From the NCBI GenBank assembly GCA_021737275.1, contig JAIPEE010000001.1:115686-179685 (forward strand): DNA of 64,000 nucleotides, in the 5' to 3' direction. The notes below the pieces were generated by a model, which ran no database searches, was not told the origin of the DNA, and saw only the letters and a program-made list of their open reading frames with translations. The DNA comes from Desulfobacterales bacterium (lineage in GTDB: Bacteria; Desulfobacterota; Desulfobacteria; Desulfobacterales; JAIPEE01). Below are positions 34,234-54,510 of the stretch, piece after piece (within the stretch, counting starts at the first letter, position 1; each line of letters opens with the position of its first letter). A program made the translations under genes and the position numbers.

Positions 34234-34959
34234 TTACACCGGCACCAGTCGGTATTTCTCTCCTGTCATTTCAACCTTTATTCTGAACATCACCATTGTT
34301 TCGGTCAGGGGGCGGCCGAAAAGAAAATCCATCATATCAGGATCCATGCCGGCCTTTTCAGCAACAAGACTTCGAATCTCCTTATCATAACGCAGCAATT
34401 CATCTATGGCAGCCAGTGCATCCTTTTGGGCCTCTTCACTTTTTAGTCTTGCCGCAAGAACACCAATTTTATGGTAATCACATCGTTTCTGGTGTGTCTC
34501 TATGATGTCCCAGATACCGCCAAATCCCTCAAGTAAGTCTTTTCTTGTGAGTCTCTCTTCATTATAAATCCGTTCAATCTCGCGTGTGTCCCAGCATTTT
34601 AATGCCCTGCATTCCACAGGACGGTGATCATAAATTTTACAAATATACTGTATGGGATCATAAAAAATACATGTCCATGTTATGCCAATTCCCCTGATCT
34701 TGACCAGGTCTGTCTTGACGGGAGCAAGGCGACCGGTGACATTATCCAGTGCCAGCTCACCTTTTCGAATGGTGTAAAGATATTTGGAAGGAATTTTCCC
34801 GGTTTCAATCAGGCCTTTGTCTTCCAAATGAAAAGAGGGCCCGCCCTTACGACAACAGGTGCCGCACCGTTTACAGTTCGGTCCGGCCATTTTATTGCGG
34901 TATATTTTACTTTTTATTTCAGGCAAGATTGTTCTCTTGGTTTCTATTGTTTTTTCCAT
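34234..34959 (-). CDS. YkgJ-family cysteine-cluster (UPF0153) protein
   Basis: CKRCGTCCRKGGP is a CxxCxxCC motif, with later conserved Cys residues. Confidence 0.6.
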   Translation of the reverse strand: MEKTIETKRTILPEIKSKIYRNKMAGPNCKRCGTCCRKGGPSFHLEDKGLIETGKIPSKYLYTIRKGELALDNVTGRLAPVKTDLVKIRGIGITWTCIFYDPIQYICKIYDHRPVECRALKCWDTREIERIYNEERLTRKDLLEGFGGIWDIIETHQKRCDYHKIGVLAARLKSEEAQKDALAAIDELLRYDKEIRSLVAEKAGMDPDMMDFLFGRPLTETMVMFRIKVEMTGEKYRLVPV

Positions 34960-35345: not shown

Positions 35346-35402
35346 ATTTCAACGATAAGAAGGTTGACAAGTAACGCCGGCTATATTAATTTGTCATAAT
35401 TG

Positions 35403-35500
35403 CAGGCTGAAGCCTGTGAAACAAATCTAACAACATAATCAAATCAAGCCATGAAGGTACTTGCACTACGAAAGTGCAATTTCTTTATGGCTTTTTTATT
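35403..35500 (+). promoter_or_regulatory. leader with UGAA-capped hairpin plus composite terminator-like hairpin immediately 5' of the nikK RBS (candidate attenuator or riboswitch expression platform)
   Basis: Hairpin caggc-tgaa-gcctg (35403-16). Outer stem aagccatgaag (35446-56) pairs with ctttatggctt (35483-93), enclosing ttgcact-acgaa-agtgcaa (35461-79), then a T-run and GGAGG (35501). No upstream plus-strand gene exists for it to terminate. Confidence 0.45.
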
Positions 35501-35509
35501 GGAGGAAAA

Positions 35510-36289
35510 ATGAAACGAACTTTAATTTTATTTGCTTTGATCGGTATTTTATCCTTATCTCCTTTGCCTGCCCGGGCACATTTCGGTATGCTCATTCCTT
35601 CCGACGAAATGGTGATGCAGCAGGATGATCGGACAGTGGATTTTCAACTCTCATTCTCTCATCCATTTGAGTTGGCCGGCATGCCTCTGGAAAAGCCAAA
35701 AGATTTTGGTGTAATGGTTAATGGCCGGCAAACCAACCTGCTGTCACAGCTTAAAGAGACTGAAGTGATGGGCCACAAAGCCTGGCGGACCCAATATAAC
35801 ATTAAGCACCCCGGTGTTTATATATTTTATATGGAACCTGAACCATACTGGGAACCGGCAGAAGACTGTTTCATTATCCATTACACCAAAACGGTTGTCA
35901 CTGCATTTGGAGACGATGAAGGTTGGGATGCGGAAATCGGACTCAAAACTGAAATCGTGCCGATATCAAAACCTTTTGGCCTTTATGCCGGTAATGTGTT
36001 CCAGGGAACCGTCAAGCTGGACGGCAAGCCTATACCTTACGCCGAAGTAGAGGTTGAATATTACAATAAAGATAGTAAATATAAGGCACCGACAGAATAT
36101 ATGGTTACACAGACCATTAAAGCGGACCGGAATGGTATTTTCACCTATGCTGCGCCATGGTTCGGATGGTGGGGGTTTGCCGCACTCAACACATCAGATA
36201 AAAAAATAAAATATGATAACGAGGAAAAAGATATTGAAATGGGTGCGGTGATCTGGGTAAATTTTATTGAACCAAAACTTATTCATTAA
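35510..36289 (+). CDS. periplasmic DUF4198 / NikK-like component of Ni/Co ECF-type transporter
   Basis: [26 protein letters not shown] is a signal peptide followed by His, as in NikK/CbiK-like proteins. ATG 35510 follows GGAGG. The ORF-track GTG 35474 lies inside the leader hairpin. Confidence 0.6.
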
Positions 36290-36315
36290 CATTTGCAAAA
36301 GTTGAAATCCGGGTT

Positions 36316-36338
36316 CCCTCTCCCTTGATGGGAGAGGG
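36316..36338. other. GC-rich 9-bp hairpin (ccctctccc-ttgat-gggagaggg) between nikK-like and cbiM/nikM
   Basis: Perfect 9-bp stem with no U-tract. It may act in differential expression or mRNA stability within the operon. Confidence 0.4.
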
Positions 36339-36442
36339 TCAGGGTGAGGGTAAACCATCTAAGCAACGGATCTGCTTCATCTCCCCCTGATTTTTTTCAT
36401 GACACCCAAAAACTTTATAGCGTATAGATAAGGGCTATTTTT

Positions 36443-37057
36443 GTGCATATATCTGAAGGAATATTATCCGGGCCGGTTCTGATTTCCGGTATGGCCATTG
36501 CCGCTGCCGGGACAGCTATCGGACTGAAAAAACTCAGAAATGAAGACATCGCCAAAACAGGTATGCTGGCGGCATCTTTTTTTGTGGCCTCATTGATACA
36601 TATCCCCATTGGCCCGGCCGGCGTCCATCTGATCCTGAGCGGCATTGTCGGTCTTTTGCTGGGGTGGGCAGCTTTTCCGGCTATACTCGTTGCATTAACG
36701 CTACAAGCCACCTTTTTCCAACACGGCGGCATAACAACACTTGGTGTTAATACAGTGATAATGGCTTTACCTGCCGTAGTCTGTCATTATCTTTTTGCGC
36801 CTCTGATCTGGAAGAATAAAACCATATCCGCGATAGGTGCCTTTGGTGCAGGTAGTATAGCCATTGTTCTTAATGCTGTGATCGCCGGTCTGGCACTTAT
36901 ATATACGGATGAAGGATTATTCAAAGCTGCTGCCCTGATTATGGGTGCCCACCTTCCAGTCATGATTATAGAAGGTATTATCAGTATCTTTTGTGTAGCC
37001 TTTTTAAAAAAAGTTCAACCCGCTCTATTACCCGGATTTAAGAGCATCAACAATTAA
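36443..37057 (+). CDS. CbiM/NikM substrate-capture (S) component of ECF Ni/Co transporter
   Basis: The GTG start gives the N-terminus MHISEGIL, which is the metal-ligating Met1-His2 end conserved in CbiM/NikM. 204 aa, multi-TM. Confidence 0.8.
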   Translation: MHISEGILSGPVLISGMAIAAAGTAIGLKKLRNEDIAKTGMLAASFFVASLIHIPIGPAGVHLILSGIVGLLLGWAAFPAILVALTLQATFFQHGGITTLGVNTVIMALPAVVCHYLFAPLIWKNKTISAIGAFGAGSIAIVLNAVIAGLALIYTDEGLFKAAALIMGAHLPVMIIEGIISIFCVAFLKKVQPALLPGFKSINN

Positions 37058-37068
37058 GGAGCAGCACT

Positions 37069-37746
37069 ATGAATATTATTTCCGCTATCTCTGAATATGC
37101 CATCCCCGCAAAAGTGGGAATCCGGAAACAGTGTAACGCCAAAGATACTTTTTATAAGCTGCCTTTTACAGCTTCATTAGTAATATTACTGTTTTTTTTC
37201 CCCAATATTGCATTTGCCCACAATGTCTCTATTTTTGCATGGGAAGAAGGTGATACCGTATATACCCAAAGTAAATTCAGCGGCGGCAAACGGGTTAAAG
37301 GTGGCACTATCATCGTAACCGATCCGAATAACAATGTACTTCTTGAGGGTAAAACCGATGATGGCGGTTTGTTCTCTTTTATCCGACCCGGCAGCGGTTT
37401 GCTGAAAATCAAGCTTGATGCCGGCTTGGGGCATGCCAACTACTGGGAACTTCCGGCGCTGGAAGCTGACGTAATAACCGACTCAAACATCGAATTACCG
37501 GAAACAATAAATGCCACTGAAAATAAAACGCTTACCGTTATAACACCTGATATTCAAAAAGAAATTGACATCGCTGTTGAAAAAGCGCTGGATAAAAGGC
37601 TCAAACCCATTATGCAGACACTGGCGGATAATCAGCAACAAGGACCGGACCTCAGAGATATTCTGGGCGGGCTTGGCTATATTTTAGGCCTGATGGGTAT
37701 GGCAGCTTATTTTAAATATAGAAAGCAAAATAATATAATAAAATGA
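37069..37746 (+). CDS. NikL-like accessory membrane-anchored protein
   Basis: N- and C-terminal TM helices flank a beta-sandwich-like segment (GGTIIVTDPNNNVLLEGKTDDGGLFSF). Its position between M and Q matches NikKMLQO-type operons. Confidence 0.45.
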   Translation: MNIISAISEYAIPAKVGIRKQCNAKDTFYKLPFTASLVILLFFFPNIAFAHNVSIFAWEEGDTVYTQSKFSGGKRVKGGTIIVTDPNNNVLLEGKTDDGGLFSFIRPGSGLLKIKLDAGLGHANYWELPALEADVITDSNIELPETINATENKTLTVITPDIQKEIDIAVEKALDKRLKPIMQTLADNQQQGPDLRDILGGLGYILGLMGMAAYFKYRKQNNIIK

Positions 37747-38498
37747 TAAACGAACCCTTTGCTGCCGGCACGTCAATTATACACAAACTTGGACCTCGCT
37801 ACAGGATTGTCATTGCTGTGCTGTATGCCTTTATTGTTGCAGTTTCCTATCAGTTTCCCGTGCTGATACTTTCTCTTTGCATCTCTGCAATTATGGCAGT
37901 TTGTGCCCAACTGAATTTCAGGGCGCTCGTTCAACGCCTTTTGTTAGTAAATGTGTTCATCCTGTTTTTCTGGATTGTTCTGCCCCTGACCGGTGGTGGT
38001 GATATCCAATTTTATGTTGGCCCCCTGCCGGTTTATAAGAACGGCATTTTAATGTCTGCCCGGATCACATTGAAATCAAATGCTATTTTACTTTCCCTGA
38101 TCTCCCTGATTGCCACTATGCCGTTTTCTGTAGCCGGACAAGCGCTGCATGCACTTAAAGTATCTGACAAAATCGTACACCTGCTTTTAATAAGTTATCG
38201 GTATATTTTTGTACTTGAGCAGGAGTACCGACGCCTTATTACAGCAGCCAGAATCCGCGGCTTCAAAGCCGGAAACAACATACATACATTAAAAACAGTA
38301 GCGTACCTGGCGGGCATGCTGCTGGTCCGCGCGGTACGTCGTGCAGAGCGCGTACATCAGGCTATGCTATGCAGGGGATTTAAAGGGAAATATTACTGCC
38401 TGGCATCATTTAAACCATCTTATGGGAACTGGATATTTACGACCTTTATGGCAATTATTATTATCTGTCTTGCTGTAATGGAATGGGGAAATATATGA
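37743..38498 (+). CDS. CbiQ/NikQ (EcfT-type) transmembrane component
   Basis: 251 aa, multi-TM, with the ARIRGF/...RAERVHQAMLCRGF C-terminal motifs typical of CbiQ. ATGA overlap with the upstream gene. Confidence 0.75.
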   Translation: MINEPFAAGTSIIHKLGPRYRIVIAVLYAFIVAVSYQFPVLILSLCISAIMAVCAQLNFRALVQRLLLVNVFILFFWIVLPLTGGGDIQFYVGPLPVYKNGILMSARITLKSNAILLSLISLIATMPFSVAGQALHALKVSDKIVHLLLISYRYIFVLEQEYRRLITAARIRGFKAGNNIHTLKTVAYLAGMLLVRAVRRAERVHQAMLCRGFKGKYYCLASFKPSYGNWIFTTFMAIIIICLAVMEWGNI

Positions 38499-39223
38499 CG
38501 GAAAGTAAAACGTTAATACATCTTGAGAATGTTTTTTTTGCTTACCCTGATGGCAGAGCTGTATTAAATAACCTGCAGTTCGACTTTTACAAAAATGATA
38601 AAATCGGCCTGATGGGTGCCAATGGCACCGGCAAAACAACGCTTTTCCACGTTATCATGGGACTTAGAAAACCGGATAAAGGATCTATCACACTTTTTGG
38701 CAAACCGGTTTCAAAGGAAAAACATTTTGCAAAGGTTCGCCATCGCATCGGTTTATTATTCCAGGATGCAGATGATCAATTATTTTGTCCCACTGTTCTG
38801 GAAGATGTCACTTTCGGACCACTGAACCTCGGACTTTCAAAAAAAGAAGCCACACGCATAGCAAAAGAGACATTAACATCATTAGGCCTGGCCGGTTATG
38901 AAGAACGGATTACCCACAAGCTGTCCGGTGGTGAGAAGAGAATGGTTTCCCTTGCTACTGTTCTGGCAATGAAACCGGAAGCACTTCTACTTGATGAGCC
39001 CACCACAGGTCTGGATGATCAGACCAAGGCGCGCCTCACAGAGGTGCTTCAAGTCCTGGATATCTCGCGCATTGTTATTTCTCACGATTTTGATTTTCTT
39101 TCCAAAGTAACTGAAGGTGTTTACCTGATGGAAGATGGAAAAATTATCACGGATGCTGATATTCATGTTCATCAGCATGTTCATGCGCATGCGCATGGGG
39201 CACATAGGCATGAACATAAATAA
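38483..39223 (+). CDS. CbiO/NikO ATPase component with His-rich C-terminal tail
   Basis: Walker A GANGTGKTT, signature LSGGEKR and Walker B LLLDEPT. It ends DADIHVHQHVHAHAHGAHRHEHK. Confidence 0.85.
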   Translation: MGKYMTESKTLIHLENVFFAYPDGRAVLNNLQFDFYKNDKIGLMGANGTGKTTLFHVIMGLRKPDKGSITLFGKPVSKEKHFAKVRHRIGLLFQDADDQLFCPTVLEDVTFGPLNLGLSKKEATRIAKETLTSLGLAGYEERITHKLSGGEKRMVSLATVLAMKPEALLLDEPTTGLDDQTKARLTEVLQVLDISRIVISHDFDFLSKVTEGVYLMEDGKIITDADIHVHQHVHAHAHGAHRHEHK

Positions 39224-42817: not shown

Positions 42818-44452
42818 TTAAATTTTACCGGTTGATCGGGCTGTCAGCTCTTTTGTCGTCTTCCTGAATTCCTGTGGCAGCGTCTTACAGTAAACCATCT
42901 TGTTGTCTCCGGATGAATAGAAATCATTAAATGTCGCTTCAAGAAGATATCCATGCTTTTCGTAAAAAGCCCGTGTCCCTGAATACTGGGGTCTTGAGGC
43001 GGTTTCTACATATAGCCGTGAGCCACCGGCGGCCGAAACACTGTCTTCAACCTTTTGAAGCAGAATTTTTCCCAATCCTGCCCCCTGACAAGAAGGCTGA
43101 ACTGCAATCCAGAATAAATCATAGCTGGATGTTGTACACGCAACCGGCCCATAACACGAAAATCCCATAAGTGAATCTTGAAAATCTGCCAAAATAAAAT
43201 AATATCCGCTTTTACTTCCCCGCTGCAGAGAATCCTGAAGTATTTCACCGAGCACACTTTTTTCTGAAGGGAGAAAAAAGCCCGTATTATCAATCAGTGA
43301 ACGAACTTTAGAAACATCATCAGGATGAGGCTCATATCTCAGCATAATGCCATCCAACGAGAACTGCTGTGTTCCGGTATCCACAGAATCGGTTTGTGTA
43401 TCTGAGCGTTTGCTCTTACAGTATATATCTGGTGTTATGTATTCGCTTTTTGCTGAAAAAATAATTCGTTCAACAGCTTTCGCATATTTAATCCCGGCCA
43501 TATCAAGTGCAGCCGAAAAACCGGCATCTGGTGACAAACAGGGATTTGTATTTACTTCCAGTATCCATGGATTTCCTTTATGGTCCACCCGGAAATCAAC
43601 CCGGGCATACCCTTTCAACCCCATATTTTCCCAGCAACGTTTAGCCAGTGAAGTCATCGTTTTAAGTAATTCTTTGTCTTCGGCAGGGAAGTCAAATCGC
43701 CGGGGAGTATGGTGATATTCAAATGAACCCTCTTCCCATTTGGCCTTGTACCCGACAATGTGAAGCATATTTTCAGGATAATCTTCAAAAACAATTTCCG
43801 CTGGAGGCAATACCTGGACCTGACCGTTCTCATCCTGAAGCAGAGAGAGATTAAATTCACGCCCGTCAATATAACACTCAGCAAAGCACGCTCCCCCCAG
43901 GGATGGTGCATGTTTTTTCATAAGATCCAGAACGTCACGAATATTGCCATTTACTAACTTGTCTTCATCCAGACCCGACGAGGCATGATCACACAACGAT
44001 TTGATCAGCCAGCTGTTTTTTGAAAACGATCCGGCGCTTATTTCAGGCCGGTATATGCCCGGCAGGACCGGCGGCCAGGGCGGTATCCACTTGGGTGTCG
44101 GCAATCCGGTGGCCATCATCAGCTCCTTGGCCATTACCTTTTGAGAGGTAATTCTGATTGACTCAGCCGGCGAACCGGTATAACGCAACCCCATAGTGTC
44201 TAATAGTGACGGCACAACATCTATCAGGCGATCATGCCCTTCCAGTGATTCCACCAGGTTGAATACACAATCCGGTTTAGCTTTTTCCAGCGCATACTTT
44301 AATTCCAAAAGATTAAGATTGCAGGAAATACGGATTGCTTCATGACCCAGTTCTGTCAGTGCATCCGATACCGCATTAACCTGCATCAGTACATCCAGAT
44401 CATCCAGAGAGCTGTCCTCTTCAACAGCATTATAGACAACAACTATCCGCAT
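42818..44452 (-). CDS. fusion protein: Ddl-like ATP-grasp ligase (N-terminal ~330 aa) plus GNAT acetyltransferase (C-terminal ~160 aa)
   Basis: 544 aa. A pre-ATP-grasp/ATP-grasp region ends ...ARVDFRVDHKGNPWILEVNTNPCLSPDAG. The GNAT core is WIAVQPSCQGAGLGKILL...AFYEKHGY. Confidence 0.7.
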   Translation of the reverse strand: MRIVVVYNAVEEDSSLDDLDVLMQVNAVSDALTELGHEAIRISCNLNLLELKYALEKAKPDCVFNLVESLEGHDRLIDVVPSLLDTMGLRYTGSPAESIRITSQKVMAKELMMATGLPTPKWIPPWPPVLPGIYRPEISAGSFSKNSWLIKSLCDHASSGLDEDKLVNGNIRDVLDLMKKHAPSLGGACFAECYIDGREFNLSLLQDENGQVQVLPPAEIVFEDYPENMLHIVGYKAKWEEGSFEYHHTPRRFDFPAEDKELLKTMTSLAKRCWENMGLKGYARVDFRVDHKGNPWILEVNTNPCLSPDAGFSAALDMAGIKYAKAVERIIFSAKSEYITPDIYCKSKRSDTQTDSVDTGTQQFSLDGIMLRYEPHPDDVSKVRSLIDNTGFFLPSEKSVLGEILQDSLQRGSKSGYYFILADFQDSLMGFSCYGPVACTTSSYDLFWIAVQPSCQGAGLGKILLQKVEDSVSAAGGSRLYVETASRPQYSGTRAFYEKHGYLLEATFNDFYSSGDNKMVYCKTLPQEFRKTTKELTARSTGKI

Positions 44453-45461
44453 GGATGACCTCCTGCAGCTCAGGACCTGTCTTCACCCGTTTTATGGCTG
44501 ATGTCAGTATCCGGTCAATAAGCGTAATATATGGGATACCCAGTTTTGAACATAAAATCGGCAGATCGGAATGTTCCGGATGAAGCCCTGCCAGCGGATT
44601 AACTTCAATGAAGGACGGCGCGCTGTTTTCATCACACCGAATATCAACTCTTCCGCCGTCCCGGCAGCCAAGTACCCGCCATACAGAAAGTGCGAGGGCT
44701 TCCGCATCTGCAATAACAGGACTCATATCTGCCTTTACCAGCCTATACTCAACAAGTTCTTCACAACGCTCTTTATTAACATAAGAATATACATTCTTTT
44801 CAGCGCATGAAAGTAAAATGATCTCCAGGGTACCGACAACTTCGGCATCAGATCCGGTACCGATAATTCCTACCGTAAATTCACGTCCGGGCAAAAAACG
44901 CTCCACAATCAGGGGCGGTGTGTATTTTTCCAGAAGAAAACGACAAACATGGTCAAGTTGCTCCGGCTGATAAATGACCGAATTTTCTGTAATCCCTTTC
45001 CCTGTTCCTTCCGCAACAGGCTTTATAAAATAAGGCGGTTCAAATGTCACCCTGCCGGCATCTTCAATAGTATATATTTCATGAAACTCCGGTGTTGCCA
45101 GTCCTGCATCCCGGACCACCCGCTTGGTCATGCCTTTATGCAGGGAAAGTGCCATAACCAGAGGATCTGAAAAAGTATAGGGAATCCCATAAACATCCAG
45201 TATGGCAGGAATCTGGGCTTCACGGCCAATTCCCTTCAAACCCTCTGCGATATTAAAAACCAGGTCCCACCGATCTCCGCATGCAAGTCTTCCAATAAGC
45301 TCCTCAGCATTTCCAATAGGGTCTGCTTTGTGTCCAAGGCTTTCCAGGGCTTCTGCCAGCGATTCAATCGTATCCAACCGATCGAATTCGGCGGTTTCCT
45401 CTTCACTGTATCCCTTTGCCAGGTAAGCCTGGCGCAAATCATATGTCAGACCGATTTTCAT
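44430..45461 (-). CDS. D-alanine--D-alanine ligase-family ATP-grasp enzyme (substrates unknown)
   Basis: 343 aa. ...YFIKPVAEGTGKGI..., GREFTVGIIG and GGRVDIRCDENSAPSFIEVNPLAGL are ATP-grasp motifs. 23-nt overlap with the downstream fusion gene. Confidence 0.7.
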   Translation of the reverse strand: MKIGLTYDLRQAYLAKGYSEEETAEFDRLDTIESLAEALESLGHKADPIGNAEELIGRLACGDRWDLVFNIAEGLKGIGREAQIPAILDVYGIPYTFSDPLVMALSLHKGMTKRVVRDAGLATPEFHEIYTIEDAGRVTFEPPYFIKPVAEGTGKGITENSVIYQPEQLDHVCRFLLEKYTPPLIVERFLPGREFTVGIIGTGSDAEVVGTLEIILLSCAEKNVYSYVNKERCEELVEYRLVKADMSPVIADAEALALSVWRVLGCRDGGRVDIRCDENSAPSFIEVNPLAGLHPEHSDLPILCSKLGIPYITLIDRILTSAIKRVKTGPELQEVIHADSCCL

Positions 45462-45542
45462 TTTCCCCTCCGCTTAAAAATTAAAATCATATTTTTTTTA
45501 TTTTTGATGAGATCCGTATATTGCCCGATCCGGATACTTATG

Positions 45543-46853
45543 CTATAAAAAACCGTCATCATATCCGTCCGATCTGTCGGGATAACTGTAAAACTTATTT
45601 TTATAATTTTTAAAAATTATCTCTTCCTCATTACGGCTGCTGATATAATCCGGCATCAATGGAATTTTTCCACCGCCGCCGGGGGCATCTACCACGTATG
45701 TGGGCAGGGCATACCCGCTGGTGAAACCCCGTAAACCTTTGATAATTTCGAGACCTTTTGATATCGGCGTACGGAAATGGCCGGAACCCGCTATGGGGTC
45801 ACACTGATAGAGGTAGTAGGGACGTACACGCATTTTAAGAAGATGGTGAACCAGCGCTGTCATTGTTTCAACAGAATCATTGATACCTTTAAGTAAAACG
45901 GTCTGAGACCCAAGGGGTATTCCGGCATCTGCTAACATTTTACAGGCACGATAGGCTTCGGGTGTACACTCATCCGGGTGGGTAAAGTGGAGACTCATCC
46001 AGAGGGGGTGGAATTTTTTAAGCATTCGGACAAGTTCCGGTGTTATCCGCTGTGGGAGTACAGCCGGCACTTTTGTGCCGATCCGGATAATCTCCAGGTG
46101 AGGAATCTGCCTCAGGTTGCCGAGCAGCCAGGACAAACGTTCCTCATGCATCGTCAGCGGGTCACCGCCGGATACAATCACATCTCTTATGGCAGGTGTG
46201 TTTTTAATATACTCAAGGCCCTTTTTAAGAGAGTTCAAAGACAGATTCATCTTTCCGTTTCCTACTGCTCGTGAGCGGGTACAGTAACGGCAATAGGTTG
46301 AGCAGTAATCCGTTACCATGAACAGCGCTCTGTCCGGATACCGGTGAACGATGCCGGGTACGGGGCTCTGATCATCTTCGCATAGAGGATCATTGCTTTC
46401 GCAGGGCATATAATTATATTCATATTTCGTAGGCACAACTGACCGTCTTAACGGGTCCTGCGGATTATCCACAGCAAGCAAACTCATATAATACGGTGTA
46501 ATAGACAGCGGAAGCGACCTGTCTACAGAAATTGACTCCGCTTGTGAAAGCGTCAGATAACTTTTCAATTCATCAAGGCTGCGTATTGAATTTCGAATCT
46601 GCCAGCGCCAGTCATTCCATAATTTATTTGGTACTTCAGGGTAATATGTGCGTCTGAACAGAACTGTTTTGGGACTGCTTCCCGGTTTAAGTGGAATTTT
46701 TAGAGATGTTTTTTTACTTAACTGCAGACATGGCAGGACTACTTCATGCCGAGCTTCATCGGGCAATGGTATTTCAGAACTATCAGGAGGGTCCTCATCC
46801 TGCTCATCAGCAACATCTTTTTCCACGAACTTGACATCCATCAGTGGTGCCAT
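45543..46853 (-). CDS. kamA: lysine 2,3-aminomutase (KamA/AblA-family radical SAM, PLP-dependent)
   Basis: CSTYCRYCTRS radical-SAM site and VVDAPGGGGK PLP-lysine motif. Both Asp residues that bind the lysine epsilon-amine in Clostridium LAM are present (YQCD and VVDAPGGGGK contexts). There is a ~65-aa acidic/Pro-rich N-terminal extension. The stop is TAG. Confidence 0.85.
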   Translation of the reverse strand: MAPLMDVKFVEKDVADEQDEDPPDSSEIPLPDEARHEVVLPCLQLSKKTSLKIPLKPGSSPKTVLFRRTYYPEVPNKLWNDWRWQIRNSIRSLDELKSYLTLSQAESISVDRSLPLSITPYYMSLLAVDNPQDPLRRSVVPTKYEYNYMPCESNDPLCEDDQSPVPGIVHRYPDRALFMVTDYCSTYCRYCTRSRAVGNGKMNLSLNSLKKGLEYIKNTPAIRDVIVSGGDPLTMHEERLSWLLGNLRQIPHLEIIRIGTKVPAVLPQRITPELVRMLKKFHPLWMSLHFTHPDECTPEAYRACKMLADAGIPLGSQTVLLKGINDSVETMTALVHHLLKMRVRPYYLYQCDPIAGSGHFRTPISKGLEIIKGLRGFTSGYALPTYVVDAPGGGGKIPLMPDYISSRNEEEIIFKNYKNKFYSYPDRSDGYDDGFL

Positions 46854-47280: not shown

Positions 47281-48696
47281 ATGATGAAGGATAATATTTT
47301 TACCAGAATGGGTGACGGTGAGCGCATTAAGATGTCTCTTCCCAAAGTTAAGGAAGAAATTGCAGCAGGCGTCCGGGATGCATCTGAAAGAGGTCAAATT
47401 CCTGAATTAAGCGCTGAAGAGCAGGAAAAGCTCTTTGATATACTGGCAGAATCAAGCCGCACGGTCAGTGTTGATCCCGGTGAAGAGGTCATTGTCACTG
47501 ATGACGGTGCTGCCATGTTGACCTATTGCGGCCCGGATGATAGCGGTGTCGGTATACCTATAAGCCGTGAAACAGCCCACCTGGTTTATGAAAGAGTATG
47601 TGCAGCAGATTCTTCGACTGCCGGCCATATTGATTTTAGTTTCAAACCGGCAAAAGCGGTCATCAATCATGAAATGAATGATTATTTTACGATTTCTCAG
47701 AAAACAACCATTCCTCTTTTCTATGGATCACAACCCAACATGGGACTTTACTTTCAGCCGGACGGCCCCTTCCCAAACCCGACGGAACTGATGCCCATGG
47801 GCAAGATTGATGAAGCGCTGGCATCAATGGAAAAAGCAGCCGAATATATGATTGATGATTTAGTATTTTTTGGTAAGGAGATGGCAGAAATCGGGTGTGA
47901 GGGACTTAACTTTGACACATCCGGTTCTGTCGGAGATGCTGATTTTTATGCCGCTCTCCAGTCTATACGGAATTTAAAAGAAGTGTTGCCTGATTTGCCC
48001 ATTATTATCGGCTCAGCATCTGAATTTATCATGGGCATGCACGGAAATATCGAGTTTGACGGCCGGCGTCTGGCCGGAATGTACCCGCACCAGCAGGCCC
48101 AGGTTGCTGAAGCGGCCGGCGCCAGCATATATGGAATGGCGGTAAATGTTGTTACAACGAAATCGTTTCCATGGAACCTTGCCCGTGCACTTACATTTAC
48201 CAAAGCAACTGTTGAGTCGTCTAACATTCCCGTACATCCCAATGTCGGGATGGGCGTATGCGGTATTCCCATGTTTGATCTCCCGCCCATTGATTGTACC
48301 TCGCGTGTAGCAAAAGCACTGGTACAAATCGGAAAAGCCGATGGATTGTAGGTTGGTGTCGGAGATCCTTTTGGTATGCCGATAACGCACATTATGGCAT
48401 CTGGAATGGGAGGTATGCGAACCGCAGGAGATCTTGTGGCATGGACGCAGATGACCCTTAAGATGAAAACTCAGGATGCAAAAAAATATGTTGCAGAGAA
48501 ACTCGGTATTGATGTCCTCAGTCTGACCGATGAAGATGTAATGCGCCCGCTCAGAGAGGAACTGGGTATTGGTGTTCTTACGGCTGTTGTAGGAAGGCCT
48601 GTCGGTATAACGGCTAAGTTAAAAATTTCCGAAATACTGGATATCAAAATAAATTCCGTACAGCGATTTAAAGAGCTGGTGGGATTAGCCATATAA
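47281..48696 (+). CDS. mtbB: dimethylamine:corrinoid methyltransferase with one in-frame UAG (predicted pyrrolysine at codon 357)
   Basis: ORFs 47281..48351 and 48376..48696 share one frame and are joined across TAG 48349-51: ...[40 protein letters not shown].... The whole 471-codon product resembles MtbB end to end (RMGDGERI, GVGIP, GHIDFSFKP, IPLFYGSQPNMGLYF, GMHGNIEFDGRRLAGMYPHQQA, NLARALTF). ATG 47284 is an equally good start. Confidence 0.85.
48349..48351 (+). other. in-frame amber codon, predicted pyrrolysine insertion site
   Basis: gat gga ttg TAG gtt ggt gtc gga gat cct. Conserved MtbB sequence continues directly after the TAG. Confidence 0.8.
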
Positions 48697-48932: not shown

Positions 48933-50591
48933 ATGACCAATCTTACAGAAAAAAAAAGGAATTATTCAAGACCCTGGCTGATAATGGCAATTCTGGTGAT
49001 CAGCCTGTTTATGCTGATCGTTCAGACTGCGCCTGATGCCAGGGCGGAAAGTGAATTGCGCGTCGGCTGGCTGGCTGATGAAATGCTTTCATCACTCGCA
49101 TGTAATGATGCCTGGCAGTATGAAACAATGGGATGCATGTTATGGCAGCTGCTTTATGATCAGGTCTGGTTCTATGGCCCACCACCGCAATACAAACATT
49201 TTCTCAGCGCAATTACAAGCTATGAAACCGAGGATAACATTAATTTCAGATTTCATGTCAGGCAGGGTATGACCTTTCATGACGGCAAACCGGTAACAGC
49301 AAAAGATTTTGCGTTTACCTTTGAACACCTTCCGGTATCCAACCCGATCTGGGCTTATAACAGTTCAACAATTGTACCCAACTCAGCTGTTGTTGTTGAT
49401 GATTATACTCTTGATTTTACAATGAAATTGCTGCTTACGCCCAAATATCCGCCTTTTGACTGGTTTCCTGTTCTACCGGAGCACCTCTGGCGGCGTTACA
49501 AGTTTGATATTGAAAAATTTAAAAACTCAAAAGCTATTGGATCCGGACCGTTTATGCTGGACTCATTTGAAGCCGGGAAATACGCATCCTTTAAAAAATT
49601 CGAGGGCTACTGGGATAAAAAACCGAGAGTTGATAAAATTGTTTTTAAAACATACGGCGGCTCGGATGCGCTGGGTATGGCCATTAAACGCGGTGAAATT
49701 GATATGATGGGTTATGGCGGTGTGAGTCCTTTATCTGCAAAACTGCTGGAAAAAGTAGAAAATGTAAAACTGATTGTTTCACCTGGAATTGAAGTTAAAA
49801 CGTTGACATTTAATATGTTTCCGGAGGGCCCCTTACAGGACCTGACTGTCAGAAAAGCCTTTGTTCATGCTATTAATAAAAAACGTATTGTCGACATGGT
49901 TTATCATGGTCAGGCTGATGAACAAGACAGTTTTATCTATCCGGAACTTGCCAATTACAATCCCAACCTGCCAAAATATGAATTCAACATTGAAACATCC
50001 AAACAACTGCTTGATGAAGGTGGCTATACAGATTCAGATGGTGATGGCTTCAGAAATGATCCGAATTCAGGTAAAAATCTGGAATTCAAGTTTCTGACAT
50101 CCTCCAATGATACGGCAGGAGTTAAAATGGCAACCCTTATCAGAGAGCAGATGAAAGAAATCGGTGTCGGCATCACAATCAATGTTGTAGACATAGATAC
50201 CTTTTATGATCTGGTATACTACCCTCAAAATCCGGTATGGGATATCTCTTTTGTCTCAGAAGAACCCGGACCATATGCCAACTGGATATGGGAATTCATG
50301 AGAAGCTGGAATGATGAATGGGCCATGGGATGGAATACATCATACTATGATAATCCGGAGTTTGACAAGATACTGAATACTTTCAATTCTTCAGCAGATC
50401 TGGAGAAAGCAAAAGCCCTTTGTCATCAAATGCAGTTAATAATGGCAACGGAACTGCCCTATTACGTCATCTGCAGACCGCACACAATTGATCCGGTCCG
50501 GACAGACAAGCTGACTGGTTATGTCTCATATATGGGCGGTGTATCCAACTGGATCAATCCGTTATCTTATTTTAACGTTCATCCTAAATAA
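48933..50591 (+). CDS. ABC transporter substrate-binding protein, family 5 (peptide/nickel/opine type), orphan
   Basis: 552 aa with an N-terminal anchor/signal and an SBP_bac_5-like length and profile (e.g. FHDGKPVTAKDFAFTFE). No cognate permease or ATPase is adjacent. Confidence 0.7.
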   Translation: MTNLTEKKRNYSRPWLIMAILVISLFMLIVQTAPDARAESELRVGWLADEMLSSLACNDAWQYETMGCMLWQLLYDQVWFYGPPPQYKHFLSAITSYETEDNINFRFHVRQGMTFHDGKPVTAKDFAFTFEHLPVSNPIWAYNSSTIVPNSAVVVDDYTLDFTMKLLLTPKYPPFDWFPVLPEHLWRRYKFDIEKFKNSKAIGSGPFMLDSFEAGKYASFKKFEGYWDKKPRVDKIVFKTYGGSDALGMAIKRGEIDMMGYGGVSPLSAKLLEKVENVKLIVSPGIEVKTLTFNMFPEGPLQDLTVRKAFVHAINKKRIVDMVYHGQADEQDSFIYPELANYNPNLPKYEFNIETSKQLLDEGGYTDSDGDGFRNDPNSGKNLEFKFLTSSNDTAGVKMATLIREQMKEIGVGITINVVDIDTFYDLVYYPQNPVWDISFVSEEPGPYANWIWEFMRSWNDEWAMGWNTSYYDNPEFDKILNTFNSSADLEKAKALCHQMQLIMATELPYYVICRPHTIDPVRTDKLTGYVSYMGGVSNWINPLSYFNVHPK

Positions 50592-50616
50592 GAAATATCC
50601 GGAAATAAACAAAAAA

Positions 50617-50653
50617 ACAGGCGCTTTCTGAAAAAAAAAGCGCCTGTTTTTTT
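50617..50653 (+). terminator. rho-independent (potentially bidirectional) terminator
   Basis: acaggcgcttt (50617-27) pairs with aaagcgcctgt (50637-47), followed by TTTTTT. An A-run precedes it. Confidence 0.75.
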
Positions 50654-50852
50654 ATATTGATCCGCTTCACCTATTGATCAAATGTCTTTTGGATCTTTCA
50701 ATATCCCCAAGTTTGCCAGTCACGGAAAAATCACATAAAATCCAAAAAATATAATGACGTTACTATACTGTGATTGATAAAAGGATAGCAAATAAGCACG
50801 TTAACACTTATTCTTGACAGAAAACAGATAATTTAATATGGAGATGGTATCT

Positions 50853-50960
50853 TCTGTCTGAAGACAGATAAAATAAAAAATCAAATATAATAACGTTAAA
50901 GCCACGAAGGCCCACTGATTTCTTTTTTAAGAAACGGTTCTTTTGCGGCTTTTTTGTTTT
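50853..50960 (+). promoter_or_regulatory. leader paralogous to 35403-35500: UGAA-capped hairpin, AATCAAAT box, composite terminator-like hairpin, T-run, RBS
   Basis: tctgtc-tgaa-gacaga (50853-68) and aatcaaat (50879-86). Outer stem aagccacgaagg (50899-910) pairs with cttttgcggctt (50940-51), with one mismatch and two G-U pairs. It encloses tttctt-tttt-aagaaa. A T-run and GGAGGAAAAATG follow. Confidence 0.45.
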
Positions 50961-50970
50961 TGGAGGAAAA

Positions 50971-52080
50971 ATGAACAAAACAGCATTATTGATATGGCTT
51001 TGTCTGCTTTTGCTTATGTTCTCAGCATCAACGGAAGCCCGGGCTGAAAAGCAGATCACGGATGCCGCCGGTAAAATAATTGTCATCCCCGAAAAAGTGG
51101 ATCATATCATCTGCTCCGGTTCCGGATGCCTCAGACTTGTGACCTACTTAGGGGCCCAGGATCTTGTGGTGGGGGTGGATGACATTGAAAACCTTAATAA
51201 TAAATTCGATGCCCGCCCTTACTCTCTTGCCAACCCTCAATTTAAAGACCTTCCGGTTTTTGGCGGGTTTCGGGGGCAAGACGTTCCTGAAAAAATCATC
51301 AGCCTTCCCACCCTGCCCCAAGTGATTTTTAAAACCTATGCATCTTCGGGATATGACCCGACCAAGCTTTCAAAAAAAACCGGGATCCCCGTCATCACAC
51401 TTGAATATGGAGATCTCGCCCACAACAGGAAGGACTTTTATACGGCCCTGACCATTCTGGGCCGTGCGCTGGACAGAGAAACCCGTGCCGGGGAATTGAT
51501 TGCCTTTTTCGATGGCCAGATTAAGGAGTTGGAAAACCTGACAAAAAACGTTCCTAACGCCTGGAAAAAGACTTGTTTTGTGGGCGGCATCGCCTTTAAG
51601 GGACCCCACGGTTTCCAATCCACGGAACCTCAGTATCCACCCTTCCAATTCATCAATGCCGAAAATATAGCAAAACCTGCCGACAATGCAAAAAAACTTC
51701 GACAGTGCAATTTTTCCAAAGAAAAAATCCTGACCATGAACCCCGAAGTGCTTTTTCTTGATCTTTCCACCCTCCAGATGGGTGAAGATCAGGGTGGCCT
51801 TTACGAGCTCAGAAACGACCTTGTCTACCGGGAGCTGACTGCCGTGCAAAATGGAAATGTATTCGGGGTACTGCCCTATAACTGGTATAGTCAGAACTCC
51901 GGATCCATTCTGGCCGACGCCTGGTTTATCGGCAAGATTCTTTATCCGAAACAATTTATGGACATCGTTCCCGAAAAAAAAGCGGACGAAATTTATACCT
52001 TTCTTCTGTCAAAACCGATGTTCAAACAGATGAACACATCCTTTAAGCAGATGGTGTTTAAACAGATCGACTTGAATTAG
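50971..52080 (+). CDS. periplasmic binding protein of iron-siderophore/cobalamin-type ABC importer (Peripla_BP_2; BtuF/FecB-like)
   Basis: Signal peptide, then ...IICSGSGCLRLVTYLGAQDLVVGVD..., typical of class III SBPs. It is followed by FecCD-type permease and ATPase genes. The stop is TAG. Confidence 0.7.
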   Translation: MNKTALLIWLCLLLLMFSASTEARAEKQITDAAGKIIVIPEKVDHIICSGSGCLRLVTYLGAQDLVVGVDDIENLNNKFDARPYSLANPQFKDLPVFGGFRGQDVPEKIISLPTLPQVIFKTYASSGYDPTKLSKKTGIPVITLEYGDLAHNRKDFYTALTILGRALDRETRAGELIAFFDGQIKELENLTKNVPNAWKKTCFVGGIAFKGPHGFQSTEPQYPPFQFINAENIAKPADNAKKLRQCNFSKEKILTMNPEVLFLDLSTLQMGEDQGGLYELRNDLVYRELTAVQNGNVFGVLPYNWYSQNSGSILADAWFIGKILYPKQFMDIVPEKKADEIYTFLLSKPMFKQMNTSFKQMVFKQIDLN

Positions 52081-52088
52081 GAGCAGGT

Positions 52089-53159
52089 ATGCATTTTGAC
52101 AACGGCGGCGTACCCGGGGAATACATACGCTATACATTGGAAAAATTTCTGTTTATTGTTCTGGCCCTGGCAACCCTTATCCTGATCATCACTGCCAGTA
52201 TTTCACTGGGCGCTGTACACATCAAGTTCACGGACGTGTTCAACACCCTTTTGAAAAACAACGTGATCAAACAATTTGATCTTATCATATGGAATATACG
52301 GGTGCCCCAGACCCTGACGGCAGTGGTCGCAGGCGCAGGCCTTGCCGGATCCGGCACCGTTATGCAATCTGTGTTAAGAAACCCCATAGCTTCGCCTTTT
52401 ACCCTCGGCATCGCCCATGCCGCAGCATTCGGAGCAGCCTTTTCAGTAATGATCCTGGGATCAGGCGTTATGTCAGGCACCCTTGGAGATGCCGTCAACA
52501 TCTCCAGCCCGATGCTTACCCTCATGTCCGCCTTTGCCTTTTCCATGGGAACCGCCTGCCTTATCACCTGTATTGCAAAAATTAAAAACTCATCTCCTGA
52601 AGTCATGGTCCTTACCGGTGTGGCACTGGGAGCTTTGTTCACGGCCGGCACTATGCTGCTCCAGTTTTTTGCCGATGATGTCCAGCTTGCCGCCATGGTC
52701 TTCTGGACTTTTGGAGATACGGCCAGAACAGACTGGAACGATCTTGCCTTCCTGTCCGTAATCACAATCCCGGTCATGATATATTTTCTGGCCAATTCAT
52801 GGAATTACAATGCCATGGATATCGGCGATGAAACCGCCAAAGGATTGGGGGTGCGGGTCGAAATGGTAAGACTCTCCGGCATGATGGCGGCCTCCCTTGT
52901 CACATCGGTCATCATCTCCTTTGCCGGAATCATCGGATTCATAGGGCTTGTGGCCCCCCATATTGTCAGAAGAATCATTGGAGATGATCACCGTTTTCTC
53001 ATGCCTGCATCCATCCTGACCGGGGCCATTGTCCTGACAGCATCGGATATTGCAGCCAGGCTGGTGCTTTTACCCCATGTCCTGCCCGTTTCCATTTTCA
53101 CTTCCTTTCTGGGCGCACCCGTATTTATATATCTTATTATCAAGGGGAATAAAAAATGA
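52089..53159 (+). CDS. FecCD/BtuC-family ABC permease
   Basis: 356 aa, ~10 TM helices. RNPIASPFTLGIAHAAAFGAA and GFIGLVAPHIVRR motifs. Confidence 0.85.
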   Translation: MHFDNGGVPGEYIRYTLEKFLFIVLALATLILIITASISLGAVHIKFTDVFNTLLKNNVIKQFDLIIWNIRVPQTLTAVVAGAGLAGSGTVMQSVLRNPIASPFTLGIAHAAAFGAAFSVMILGSGVMSGTLGDAVNISSPMLTLMSAFAFSMGTACLITCIAKIKNSSPEVMVLTGVALGALFTAGTMLLQFFADDVQLAAMVFWTFGDTARTDWNDLAFLSVITIPVMIYFLANSWNYNAMDIGDETAKGLGVRVEMVRLSGMMAASLVTSVIISFAGIIGFIGLVAPHIVRRIIGDDHRFLMPASILTGAIVLTASDIAARLVLLPHVLPVSIFTSFLGAPVFIYLIIKGNKK

Positions 53160-53944
53160 TACTTGATGTGAATAAACTTGCCTTTACCTACAAGCGCCAT
53201 GACATCCTCAACGATATCGGTTTTACCATTCAGCAAGGAGAAATCACCGTCATCCTCGGCCCCAACGGCGTAGGGAAAACCACCCTGCTTAAATGCCTCA
53301 ACGGCATCCTCTCTCCCCAAGAAGGTAATATCCTTATCAAGGATAAAAATATCAGAACCATGACCATCAAAGAGATAGCCCGGCAGGTCGCCTATGTGGC
53401 TCAGAAAAGTGACGCGGCCGGAATAACCGTTTTTGATGCCGTGCTCATGGGCAGAAAGCCCCATATCAATTACAGGGCCGGGAAAGCAGATCTCAAAAAG
53501 GTGGATGCGGTCATCCGCCACCTGAACCTTTCCGGGATCAGCCTGAAATACCTGAATCAGTTAAGCGGAGGAGAACTTCAAAAGGTCTGCATTGCAAGGG
53601 CCCTGGTTCAGGAGACAGACCTTCTGCTTATGGATGAACCCACTGCAAGCCTGGACCTGAAAAACCGGATCCATATACTGGAACTGATCCGACACATTAT
53701 TAAAGGCCACCATATAGCGGCGGTCATGACCATGCACGATCTGAACACCGCCATGAGATATGCGGACAAGTATATTTTTTTAAAGGACCGAACCATCTAT
53801 TCGGCCGGAGATATCCGGGATGTCACCCCTGAAATGGTGGAAGAGGTTTACGGTATCAGGGTCGACATCATGCATCACAAAGGGCTTCCGGTAGTCATTC
53901 CCGTAAACGGTTCCGATATTCCCGGAACAAAACAGGCAGCCTGA
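53156..53944 (+). CDS. ABC ATPase (FecE/BtuD-like)
   Basis: GPNGVGKTT, LSGGELQK and LLMDEPTASLD motifs. ATGA overlap with the permease gene. Confidence 0.85.
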   Translation: MILDVNKLAFTYKRHDILNDIGFTIQQGEITVILGPNGVGKTTLLKCLNGILSPQEGNILIKDKNIRTMTIKEIARQVAYVAQKSDAAGITVFDAVLMGRKPHINYRAGKADLKKVDAVIRHLNLSGISLKYLNQLSGGELQKVCIARALVQETDLLLMDEPTASLDLKNRIHILELIRHIIKGHHIAAVMTMHDLNTAMRYADKYIFLKDRTIYSAGDIRDVTPEMVEEVYGIRVDIMHHKGLPVVIPVNGSDIPGTKQAA

Positions 53945-53964
53945 TTTTTAAAAAAGGAGCGATT

Positions 53965-54510
53965 ATGAATTATGAACAGCACAACCGGCCTGAAATGAAT
54001 CTTGTACCTGTGGGACTTGTCAAAAGCCCCATTAAAACCCCCAGTATCAAGATTTCCAAAGATAACCTTGAGCTGAAACCGTCTGTGGAAGAACTAAAAA
54101 AACTGCAAAAGGAAATTGATAACACCATAAGTGAGATACTGATATTTAAAAAGTGGGAACCCCTGCTTAAAGGGATAGACGGTTTTTCCCATATTCTGGT
54201 ATTATACTGGCCCCACCTCATTGACCCTGAAAAACGAAAGCTTGAGCAGGTGCATCCCATGGGAAGAGAAGAGATCCCGATACAGGGCATTTTTGCCACC
54301 TGCAGCCCTGCCAGGCCCAACCCGGTACTGGTTTCCGCAGTCCAGCTGATCCGTCAGGAAAAAAACAAATTGATCGTCAAAGGATTTGAAGCCGTTGACA
54401 ACAGCCCGATCATTGATATCAAACCGTATTCCGTCCATTATATGAAAAAAGAAAATCTCAGGTTTCCGAAATGGATGAGAAAGATCTATAAGGAATTTGG
54501 AATTGATTAG
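53965..54510 (+). CDS. TsaA/TrmO-family (UPF0066) SAM-dependent methyltransferase-like protein
   Basis: GFSHILVLYWPH, RPNPVLVSAV and PIIDIKPY motifs. The stop is TAG. Confidence 0.7.
   Translation: MNYEQHNRPEMNLVPVGLVKSPIKTPSIKISKDNLELKPSVEELKKLQKEIDNTISEILIFKKWEPLLKGIDGFSHILVLYWPHLIDPEKRKLEQVHPMGREEIPIQGIFATCSPARPNPVLVSAVQLIRQEKNKLIVKGFEAVDNSPIIDIKPYSVHYMKKENLRFPKWMRKIYKEFGID

Follow-up and report, generated by a model that had tools for sequence, protein, structure and literature searches.

The 64,000-nt stretch of DNA analysed here, hereafter the window, comes from a Desulfobacterales metagenome-assembled genome and carries an operon for a NikKMLQO-type importer (operon 1) and an operon for a NiuBDE-like importer (operon 2), and each of them is preceded by a leader of about 100 nt (Table 1). 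In both leaders, a 5'-terminal hairpin (P1) is followed by a linker and by a terminator stem that encloses a second hairpin (P3). An initial annotation of the window had pointed to an ordered set of elements shared by the two leaders, and this order was reproduced, element by element, when we read both regions directly and folded them with RNAfold. The same annotation had remarked that no co-directional gene upstream needs terminating. Indeed, the gene 5' of leader 1 (34234-34959) runs divergently, and the gene ahead of leader 2 (48933-50591) ends in a hairpin terminator of its own (50609-50655).

Two window leaders belong to a widespread RNA family

The two leaders stand out within the window by several measures. 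With at most one mismatch, AAGCCAYGAAGG occurs in the window only in the two leaders (0.61 sites expected), and the folding z-scores against shuffled sequence are -4.9 for leader 1 and -3.7 for leader 2. The terminator domains have free energies of -22 and -19 kcal/mol, and their U-runs end 4-9 nt ahead of the GGAGG of the Shine-Dalgarno sequence. Beyond what had been listed before, a perfect TTGACA is found exactly 39 nt 5' of P1 in both leaders. Two of the listed elements fared less well. The octamer AATCAAAT, reported as identical in the two copies, occurs 12 times in the window where 10.6 occurrences are expected, which is not significant; its distance to the stem differs between the two leaders, and it is absent from the other leaders of the family. 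It is a chance match outside the motif. The identical translation start holds up within the window, where the 14-mer GGAGGAAAAATGAA is found only at 35501-35514 and 50962-50975 (0.12 sites expected), but it is not conserved in other leaders and is also outside the motif.

To look for relatives, we fetched 80 orthologous nikK loci, one genome per species, and compared their upstream regions, in which the same leader architecture could be seen by eye. Covariance model R1, made from alignment A3 on 40 of these loci, found the leader in 64 of the 80, that is in Desulfobacterales and relatives. The hosts include Desulfonema magnum, Desulfocicer vacuolatum, Desulfobacula, Desulfosarcinaceae, Desulfococcaceae and Desulfatiglandales, and among the 80 loci the leader was absent from the nikK orthologues of Desulfuromonadales and Desulfarculaceae. 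Cultured carriers include D. vacuolatum DSM 3385 and D. magnum 4be13 (NZ_CP061800.1), whose copy lies at L005 1350-1474. A scan of metagenomes with a DNA pattern that is independent of the downstream gene gave at least 120 loci, at least ~100 of which were confirmed by covariance model at 35 bits or more; altogether, at least ~130 metagenomic copies were confirmed by covariance model. Confirmed copies of the family number at least ~200, and all but the two in the window come from other genomes or metagenomes.

As an independent test on the window, covariance model R2 was built from metagenomic copies only. It scored leader 1 at 69.6 bits and leader 2 at 53.7 bits, with 19.8 bits for the next-best site in the 64 kb. 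The two look-alike leaders are thus true copies of a widespread RNA family and not merely two paralogues. A chance likeness between two generic terminators, each followed by a strong ribosome-binding site, could draw on the octamer's chance frequency and on the start 14-mer that other leaders lack, but it is already refuted by the R2 scores and by the at least ~200 covarying family members, and we give it practically no weight. The same evidence excludes one of the outcomes that the initial annotation had named as refuting it, namely a similarity confined to terminator and ribosome-binding site.

Two copies ahead of neighbouring operons are also found outside the window, at L022 (529-620 and 1376-1471) and L162 (519-625 and 1878-1971), and further loci with two copies are L164, L158, L202 and L092; members of the regulon therefore cluster.

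One-sided conservation and an alternative fold of the terminator arm

Across the family, TTGAC lies within 60 nt upstream in 124 of 144 leaders, mostly 37-44 nt ahead of P1, and from this spacing we take P1 to be the 5' end of the transcript. At the other end, the U-run stops ~5-25 nt 5' of the ribosome-binding site and so abuts it, leaving no room for a second promoter; the operons would therefore be expressible only by read-through. A G+C-containing stem followed by a U-run between promoter and first gene is what defines an attenuator with an intrinsic terminator, and the leader also has the mutually exclusive alternative structure expected of one, in that a small hairpin (P2, below) shares the 5' arm of the terminator. 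The proposal in the initial annotation that these are conditional attenuators is supported by the read-through-only layout, and termination is probably conditional.

The helices were assessed in two alignments, A4 with 67 protein-anchored leaders and A5 with an independent set of 81. Taking the 20 modelled pairs of P1, P3 and the outer stem together, A4 has 88.7% paired cells, compared with 75.4% when columns are shuffled and 38-46% when partners are slid, and A5 repeats this result. Compensatory two-sided changes are seen at each of the six modelled P1 pairs and at every P3 pair, in A4 as well as in A5 (at column 2/29 in P1, for instance, GC is found in 17, UA in 15, AU in 8 and CG in 7 sequences), and RNAalifold, run without guidance, arrives at the same three helices as were modelled. 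Family-wide, pairing in the outer stem amounts to 91%. The linker varies from 27 to 69 nt, and its sequence is not conserved. A covariance search for more copies and for compensatory changes had been suggested as a check, and its outcome, the leader at 64 of 80 nikK loci and compensatory changes in P1 and P3, bears out the common cis-regulatory RNA that had been postulated from the two window copies.

The loops are related as well. P1 is capped by AGAA (15), UGAA (13), AAGAA (6), ACGAA and others, on a C-G closing pair in 39 of 45 cases; half of the P3 loops (30 of 60 leaders) have GAA as their last three bases, and GAAG is present in the inner region of 27 of 60 sequences, against 4.7 expected. 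An antiterminator in which P1 pairs at long range with one or the other terminator arm was considered and rejected, as the sequences show no conserved complementarity.

Conservation of the outer stem is one-sided. In the 67 protein-anchored leaders, CCAYGAAGG is nearly invariant, with C97, C98, A99, G101, A102 and A103 as near-invariant columns of A4, and the terminator 5' arm CCACGAAGG is intact in 52 of the 67, nearly all exceptions being a C-to-U change at one position. The 3' partners vary: G101 stands opposite C in 40 sequences and opposite U in 25, and A102 faces a mismatch in 13 of the 67, A103 in 20. An invariant 5' strand facing a free 3' strand indicates a constraint on the sequence of the 5' arm and not on the helix as such. 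The near-identical stem arm noted in the two window copies is therefore real and widely conserved, but its key element is the 5' arm with a mini-hairpin of its own.

This mini-hairpin, P2, has three base pairs and the form NCC-ACGAA-GGN', with the loop ACGAA in 52 and AUGAA in 8 of the 67 leaders. The pair N:N' is A-U in 31, G-C in 23 and G-U in 10 leaders and non-pairing in 3 (64/67 standard), compared with at most 51% paired in slid controls. In the terminator the same N pairs with a third base, N'', as A-U in 33, G-C in 27, G-U in 6 and U-G in 1, so that an unpaired N does not occur. Among the 33 leaders with A at N, U is found at N' in 31 and at N'' in all; with G at N, each of the two can be U or C, as would be expected if one base must suit two exclusive partners. 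Moreover, the loop and closing pair of P2 (C-ACGAA-G) are of the same type as in P1 and in about half of the P3 hairpins. Taken alone, P2 is marginally stable (-1.1 kcal/mol in leader 1, -2.5 kcal/mol in leader 2), and the terminator fold beats a fold with P2 forced by 12.6 and 11.1 kcal/mol.

Because of the U in its P2 loop, leader 1 has an AUG from which a 20-codon open reading frame crosses the terminator (35451-35513); the UGA stop of this frame and the nikK start overlap as AUGA. Regulation by a leader peptide was rejected, because the frame is opened only by the AUG variant of P2 and most copies have ACG; judging from these sequences, the frame is probably incidental.

Related hairpins are found on a different platform. 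The human-gut metagenomic leader L118 lies ahead of a gene for an energy-coupling factor (ECF) S-component whose closest named relatives are Agathobaculum (Bacillota). Ahead of this gene, Agathobaculum-like genomes have a tandem array of three hairpins (CCGCC-ACGAA-GGCGG, GCC-AUGAA-GGC, GCCCUC-AGAA-GAGGGC) and no terminator. The Shine-Dalgarno sequence there may pair with an upstream GCUCC, in a fold that is not significant, and in the same locus the 5' untranslated region of a DUF3842 gene ends in a long hairpin capped by GCC-AGAA-GGC. The sequences of these loci support the notion that a hairpin with a C-(N)NGAA-G loop may be a functional unit that can be coupled to different expression platforms.

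Table 1. Positions of the leader elements, the operons they precede and the Agathobaculum-like hairpins. Positions refer to the window unless a locus is named.
Feature	Position	Strand	Basis or remark
Leader 1, promoter -35 box TTGACA	35364..35369	+	Read directly; spacing to P1 as in leader 2
Leader 1, P1, 5'-terminal hairpin UUGCAGGC-UGAA-GCCUGUGA	35400..35419	+	RNAfold; covariation in family
Leader 1, linker, unstructured, sequence not conserved	35420..35445	+	
Leader 1, terminator 5' arm AAGCCAUGAAGG	35446..35458	+	Includes AAGCCATGAAGG at 35446-35457
Leader 1, alternative mini-hairpin P2, GCC-AUGAA-GGU	35448-35458	+	Inside terminator 5' arm
Leader 1, P3, inner hairpin UUGCACU-ACGAA-AGUGCAA	35461..35479	+	RNAfold; P3 covaries in family
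Leader 1, terminator 3' arm UCUUUAUGGCUU and U-run	35482..35497	+	Read directly, RNAfold
Leader 1, Shine-Dalgarno GGAGG (35501) and nikK ATG (35510)	35501..35512	+	
Operon 1: DUF4198/NikK, CbiM/NikM, NikL-family, CbiQ/NikQ, ABC ATPase/NikO	35510..39223	+	Pfam
Leader 2, promoter -35 box TTGACA	50814..50819	+	39 nt ahead of P1
Leader 2, P1, UCUGUC-UGAA-GACAGA	50853..50868	+	RNAfold
Leader 2, terminator 5' arm AAGCCACGAAGG	50899..50911	+	Includes AAGCCACGAAGG at 50899-50910; holds P2 GCC-ACGAA-GGC at 50901-50911
Leader 2, P3, inner hairpin without NGAA loop in this copy	50914..50938	+	RNAfold
Leader 2, terminator 3' arm CUUUUGCGGCUU and U-run (UUUUUUGUUUUU)	50940..50961	+	Read directly, RNAfold
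Leader 2, Shine-Dalgarno GGAGG (50962) and ATG (50971)	50962..50973	+	
Operon 2: Peripla_BP_2 binding protein, FecCD permease, ABC ATPase, TrmO_N-domain protein; NiuBDE-like importer	50971..54510	+	Pfam
Agathobaculum-like hairpins	L205 5878-5965 and 4330-4385 (also L206-L208)		Missed by covariance models

Genes downstream of the leader

The first gene after the leader was tallied for 99 confirmed metagenomic leaders, among the matches listed. NikK comes first in 37 and NikM/CbiM in 15, with two additional N-terminal fragments of the latter, followed by beta-barrel porins (about 8), ECF S-components (5), TonB-dependent receptors (4), FecCD (4), NikA-like SBP_bac_5 proteins (2-4), SAM methyltransferases (2), TonB (1) and FmdE (1). 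In window operon 1, the gene at 37069-37746 belongs to the NikL family by NCBIfam NF058648. The module of operon 2 recurs at L104 in the order leader-FecCD-ABC-Peripla_BP_2-methyltransferase-TrmO_N, and at L163 in the order leader-FmdE-FecCD-ABC-Peripla_BP_2.

CooT, a nickel chaperone, is encoded next to DUF3842, and the pair carries the leader when standing alone (L209, at 45 bits, L211 and L213); it is also found within nik operons (L212, L083). DUF3842 and CooT form a fixed overlapping pair (L209 4001-4610, L212 4001-4613, L213 4001-4604, L083 864-1473), and DUF3842 is 70-80% identical across Desulfobacterales, with Cys61 and His123 invariant. It may be a hitherto unrecognised nickel-trafficking protein.

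H. pylori imports nickel by way of NiuBDE, a system of the Peripla_BP_2/FecCD type, and NikR of the same organism controls NiuBDE, FrpB4, TonB-dependent receptors and TonB. From their sequences, the genes under the leader look like a nickel acquisition and trafficking set resembling a regulon of the NikR type: the same kinds of genes, i.e. NikKMLQO, a FecCD-type nickel ABC importer, TonB-dependent receptors and TonB, are found in NikR regulons (PMC545781, together with what is known for H. pylori). NikR acts through a DNA operator, whereas the leader is a transcribed RNA structure. In delta-proteobacteria with NikR, nik operons carry the box GTGTTAC-N13/14-GTAACAC (PMC545781); allowing up to three substitutions, this box was absent from all 80 upstream regions, in which no conserved operator-like DNA motif was found either.

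The initial annotation had left the choice of target between transition metals and corrinoids. The CooT, NikL-family, NikA-like and NiuBDE-like genes under the leader shift this choice towards nickel. Neither window leader matches the cobalamin riboswitch (RF00174), and the same search detects a genuine one with 79 bits in L044, which served as positive control. At that locus the cobalamin riboswitch (1791-2069) is located just 3' of a leader-controlled nikK-nikL pair. The two are therefore distinct RNA controls that can lie side by side.

Some further genes deserve mention. The ECF S-component is repeatedly paired with a protein of 350-420 aa (L133 316-2110; L205 4837-6582), with the same RNA signature, and the C-terminal half of this partner is a weak PRK/uridine-kinase-like P-loop domain. 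In the window, the gene directly 5' of leader 2 encodes a NikA-like SBP_bac_5 protein and has a strong bidirectional terminator of its own (50609-50655, the gene and terminator together spanning 48933-50655) but no leader, unlike SBP_bac_5 genes in the metagenomes, which do carry the leader. Upstream of it, at 47281-48696, the dimethylamine methyltransferase gene mtbB is interrupted by an in-frame stop near 48352, and a PYLIS_2 element of Rfam (48349-48448, 98.5 bits) follows directly after this stop; the host is therefore a pyrrolysine-using member of the Desulfobacterales. Lastly, a region on the minus strand (42818-46853) contains a lysine-2,3-aminomutase-like radical SAM gene, two D-Ala-D-Ala-ligase-like ATP-grasp genes and a GNAT domain, and may be a cluster of the beta-lysine or osmolyte type.

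Known RNA classes, proposed mechanism and rival explanations

Rfam 15 was searched with the window at gathering threshold, with both leaders at E<=10 and with 17 further leaders at E<=1. No family fits either leader, as the initial annotation had anticipated when it could not name a riboswitch class, and at gathering threshold the window yields only PYLIS_2. The best matches below threshold were SpF11 (27 bits vs a threshold of 54), TEG147 (22 vs 56) and trpB (20 vs 59); they recur on none of the 17 other leaders and are a generic resemblance of the 'hairpin plus terminator' kind. In the literature that we searched on the leader and its candidate partners there is no description of it, and RNA control goes unmentioned in a comparative study of how cable bacteria keep nickel in balance. 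Its loop and sequence signature and its regulon are not covered by Rfam 15 or by this literature. Going by sequence comparison, the leader is a new leader-RNA family, and the switch between terminator and antiterminator would in itself be a familiar mechanism.

Besides the NikR regulon, four known systems come close in one respect or another. The NiCo riboswitch (czcD motif) is, like the leader, an RNA element tied to nickel/cobalt homeostasis, but it is a four-way junction that turns on exporters, whereas the leader is a hairpin-linker-terminator arrangement on importers; there was no Rfam match, and NiCo was rejected. Guanidine-II riboswitches (mini-ykkC) consist of paired short hairpins with ACGR loops that pair with each other. 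The leader resembles them in having two short hairpins with conserved, C-G-closed loops and a linker of variable length and sequence, and the P2 loop ACGAA equals the guanidine-II ACGA plus one base. This class was rejected, since ACGR tetraloops are not present on both hairpins (P1 and P3 have NGAA loops), the leader loops cannot pair mutually, the platform is a terminator containing one of the hairpins, the downstream genes have no link to guanidine, and RF01068 gave no match at E<=10. The HMP-PP (thiS) riboswitch is a 'terminator-embedded aptamer' and shares with the leader conserved nucleotides in the terminator stem and a competing local alternative fold, but sequence, structure and gene set all differ, and Rfam gave no match.

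The targets of ANTAR proteins (EutV, NasR, AmiR) resemble the leader in having an upstream hairpin and a second one in the terminator 5' arm that is mutually exclusive with the terminator, and in both systems these two hairpins share one loop type, as P1 and P2 do. The ANTAR dual-hexaloop element is defined by two hairpins with the same loop type, the second within the terminator stem (PMC8934654), and a 20-nt extension of the linker abolishes function in EutV (PMC8934654). An ANTAR element proper was rejected on two counts: ANTAR hexaloops have A at position 1 and G at position 4, whereas the leader loops are 4-5 nt, end in GAA and are C-G-closed, and the short, length-constrained linker of the ANTAR elements has no counterpart in the leader. 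The leader also differs in its frequent third hairpin with the same loop and in a regulon for nickel uptake. No ANTAR-domain protein was found among the genes neighbouring the leaders, a result that refers to these loci.

Most likely, the leader turns nickel-uptake genes on and off by letting RNA polymerase pass its built-in terminator or not. It would then be a transcription attenuator of ~100 nt, transcribed from its own sigma-70-type promoter, with two folds available to it. In the first, P1 would be followed by the intrinsic terminator, whose outer stem, formed by NCCACGAAGG and YYUUYGUGGN'', encloses P3 and runs into the U-run; in the second, the 5' arm would fold on itself as P2, so that P1, P2 and often P3 all display a C-(N)NGAA-G loop. 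P2 would form first during transcription. Because it is too weak alone and is the only conserved competitor of the terminator, we propose an effector that stabilises it: bound to the NGAA loops, the effector would keep P2 closed until RNA polymerase has passed the U-run, by the same logic as ANTAR or HutP antitermination. P1 would tether the effector, the decision would fall at P2, and P3 could serve as an additional, optional site. If the effector is missing, the terminator would win, being 11-13 kcal/mol more stable. As the effector-bound state would be ON and the genes are importers, the effector would be active when nickel is scarce, and recognition in the ON state favours a metal-free protein or a starvation metabolite over direct binding of Ni2+; an apo-form RNA-binding protein seems the better candidate and a starvation metabolite the less likely one. 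We regard it as roughly an even bet that a nickel-status-dependent effector binds the NGAA loops, stabilises P2 and prevents termination.

Several observations weigh against this proposal. The NGAA loop of P3 is present in only about half of the leaders and missing from window leader 2, and the linker is far longer than ANTAR systems tolerate. P2 consists of one covarying pair and two invariant C-G pairs, and kinship of the sequences could inflate its signal. The ECF S-component with its P-loop protein and the methyltransferases are not obviously nickel genes. Furthermore, clustering of the neighbouring genes (all-against-all BLAST of the open reading frames from all loci) gave no recurrent RNA-binding family, and yielded transporter genes, argS synteny, DUF3842 and the like. 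DUF3842, the one recurrent protein of unknown function, was considered as the effector since its gene directly follows the leader at several loci. Likewise, hutP is the first gene of its operon. The AlphaFold model of DUF3842 (pLDDT 77) is Rossmann-like and not an RNA-binding fold, with UbiX, FtsZ, USP and NAD-binding domains as top PDB matches (E about 1e-4 to 1e-3), and an RNA-binding role for it is unsupported. CooT, with a fold that has been described as Sm-like, is a conceivable but speculative candidate for the effector.

The principal rival is a riboswitch that senses its ligand directly through a small aptamer embedded in the terminator, the NGAA loops of P1, P2 and P3 gathering round a molecule or metal ion; HMP-PP/thiS, or else the two-hairpin guanidine-II riboswitch, would be its parallel. 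The ligand could be Ni2+/Co2+, whose bound state must favour the terminator, or a metabolite of nickel shortage that acts as ON signal via P2. The spread over two phyla, from Desulfobacterota to an Agathobaculum relative in Bacillota, and the occurrence of the hairpins on different platforms, as part of a terminator or as free tandem hairpins near a possibly sequestered Shine-Dalgarno sequence, would rather be expected of a ligand-binding riboswitch than of a protein particular to one lineage. The few conserved nucleotides, located in loops on either side of a variable linker as in guanidine-II, the ECF S-component genes, which are classic riboswitch targets, and the negative search for a partner protein point the same way. 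Against these stand the sign of control, since a recognised state with P2 folded is ON and thus wrong for direct sensing of Ni2+ on importers, the lack of conserved internal loops or junctions for a pocket, the variation of the P1 loop among UGAA, AGAA, AAGAA and ACGAA together with the optional P3 loop, and loops that are not self-complementary, which rules out loop-loop pairing of the guanidine-II type. On balance, we hold this rival to be a serious but rather unlikely one.

A structure that senses nothing has also to be considered, in which P1 is a 5' stabiliser and a leaky terminator fixes low expression or releases a small RNA of ~100 nt, with nickel control exerted elsewhere, e.g. at the promoter. 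P1 does begin the transcript, a small-RNA gene likewise runs from promoter through hairpin, linker and terminator to U-tail, and the weak Rfam similarities are all to small RNAs of that layout. However, a fixed terminator needs neither an invariant 5' arm opposite a variable 3' arm, nor a second, exclusive N:N' pairing, nor the same loop type on three hairpins; the linker, where the seed of a small RNA would sit, is not conserved, and neither a conserved operator-like motif nor a NikR box is present in the 80 upstream regions. This makes the explanation improbable. Still less credit can be given to P1 as the palindromic DNA operator of a repressor at the transcription start, with the likeness of the leaders reflecting shared protein-DNA control. 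Its position at about +2 to +20 is typical of operators, but the P1 stems swap sequence freely as long as pairing is kept and make use of G-U wobble, which is meaningless in duplex DNA, and the conserved CCACGAAGG would be left unexplained; we consider it very improbable.

To our knowledge, nickel uptake is under the control of DNA-binding repressors (NikR and others), and NiCo, on exporters, is the only nickel-related RNA switch. A bolder interpretation of the family, which we put forward tentatively as possible though not probable, is that it represents a new riboswitch class and the first RNA sensor of nickel import, in which two or three NGAA-loop hairpins, one of them inside a terminator, bind a nickel-status ligand, or equally the RNA bound by a family of antiterminator proteins that respond to nickel and replace NikR in Desulfobacterales and some Clostridia. 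If the attenuator proposed here is real, the conserved leader would add an RNA level to the control of nickel import, extending over ECF and ABC importers, outer-membrane receptors and the CooT-DUF3842 pair, in hosts that depend heavily on nickel enzymes, namely complete-oxidising sulfate reducers, partners of alkane-oxidising archaea and a gut Firmicute. The motif is small (~100 nt) and cultured hosts exist, so the hypothesis is directly testable. Its regulon would moreover provide a functional handle on DUF3842, on the TrmO_N and FmdE proteins next to FecCD importers, and on the ECF S-component with its P-loop protein.

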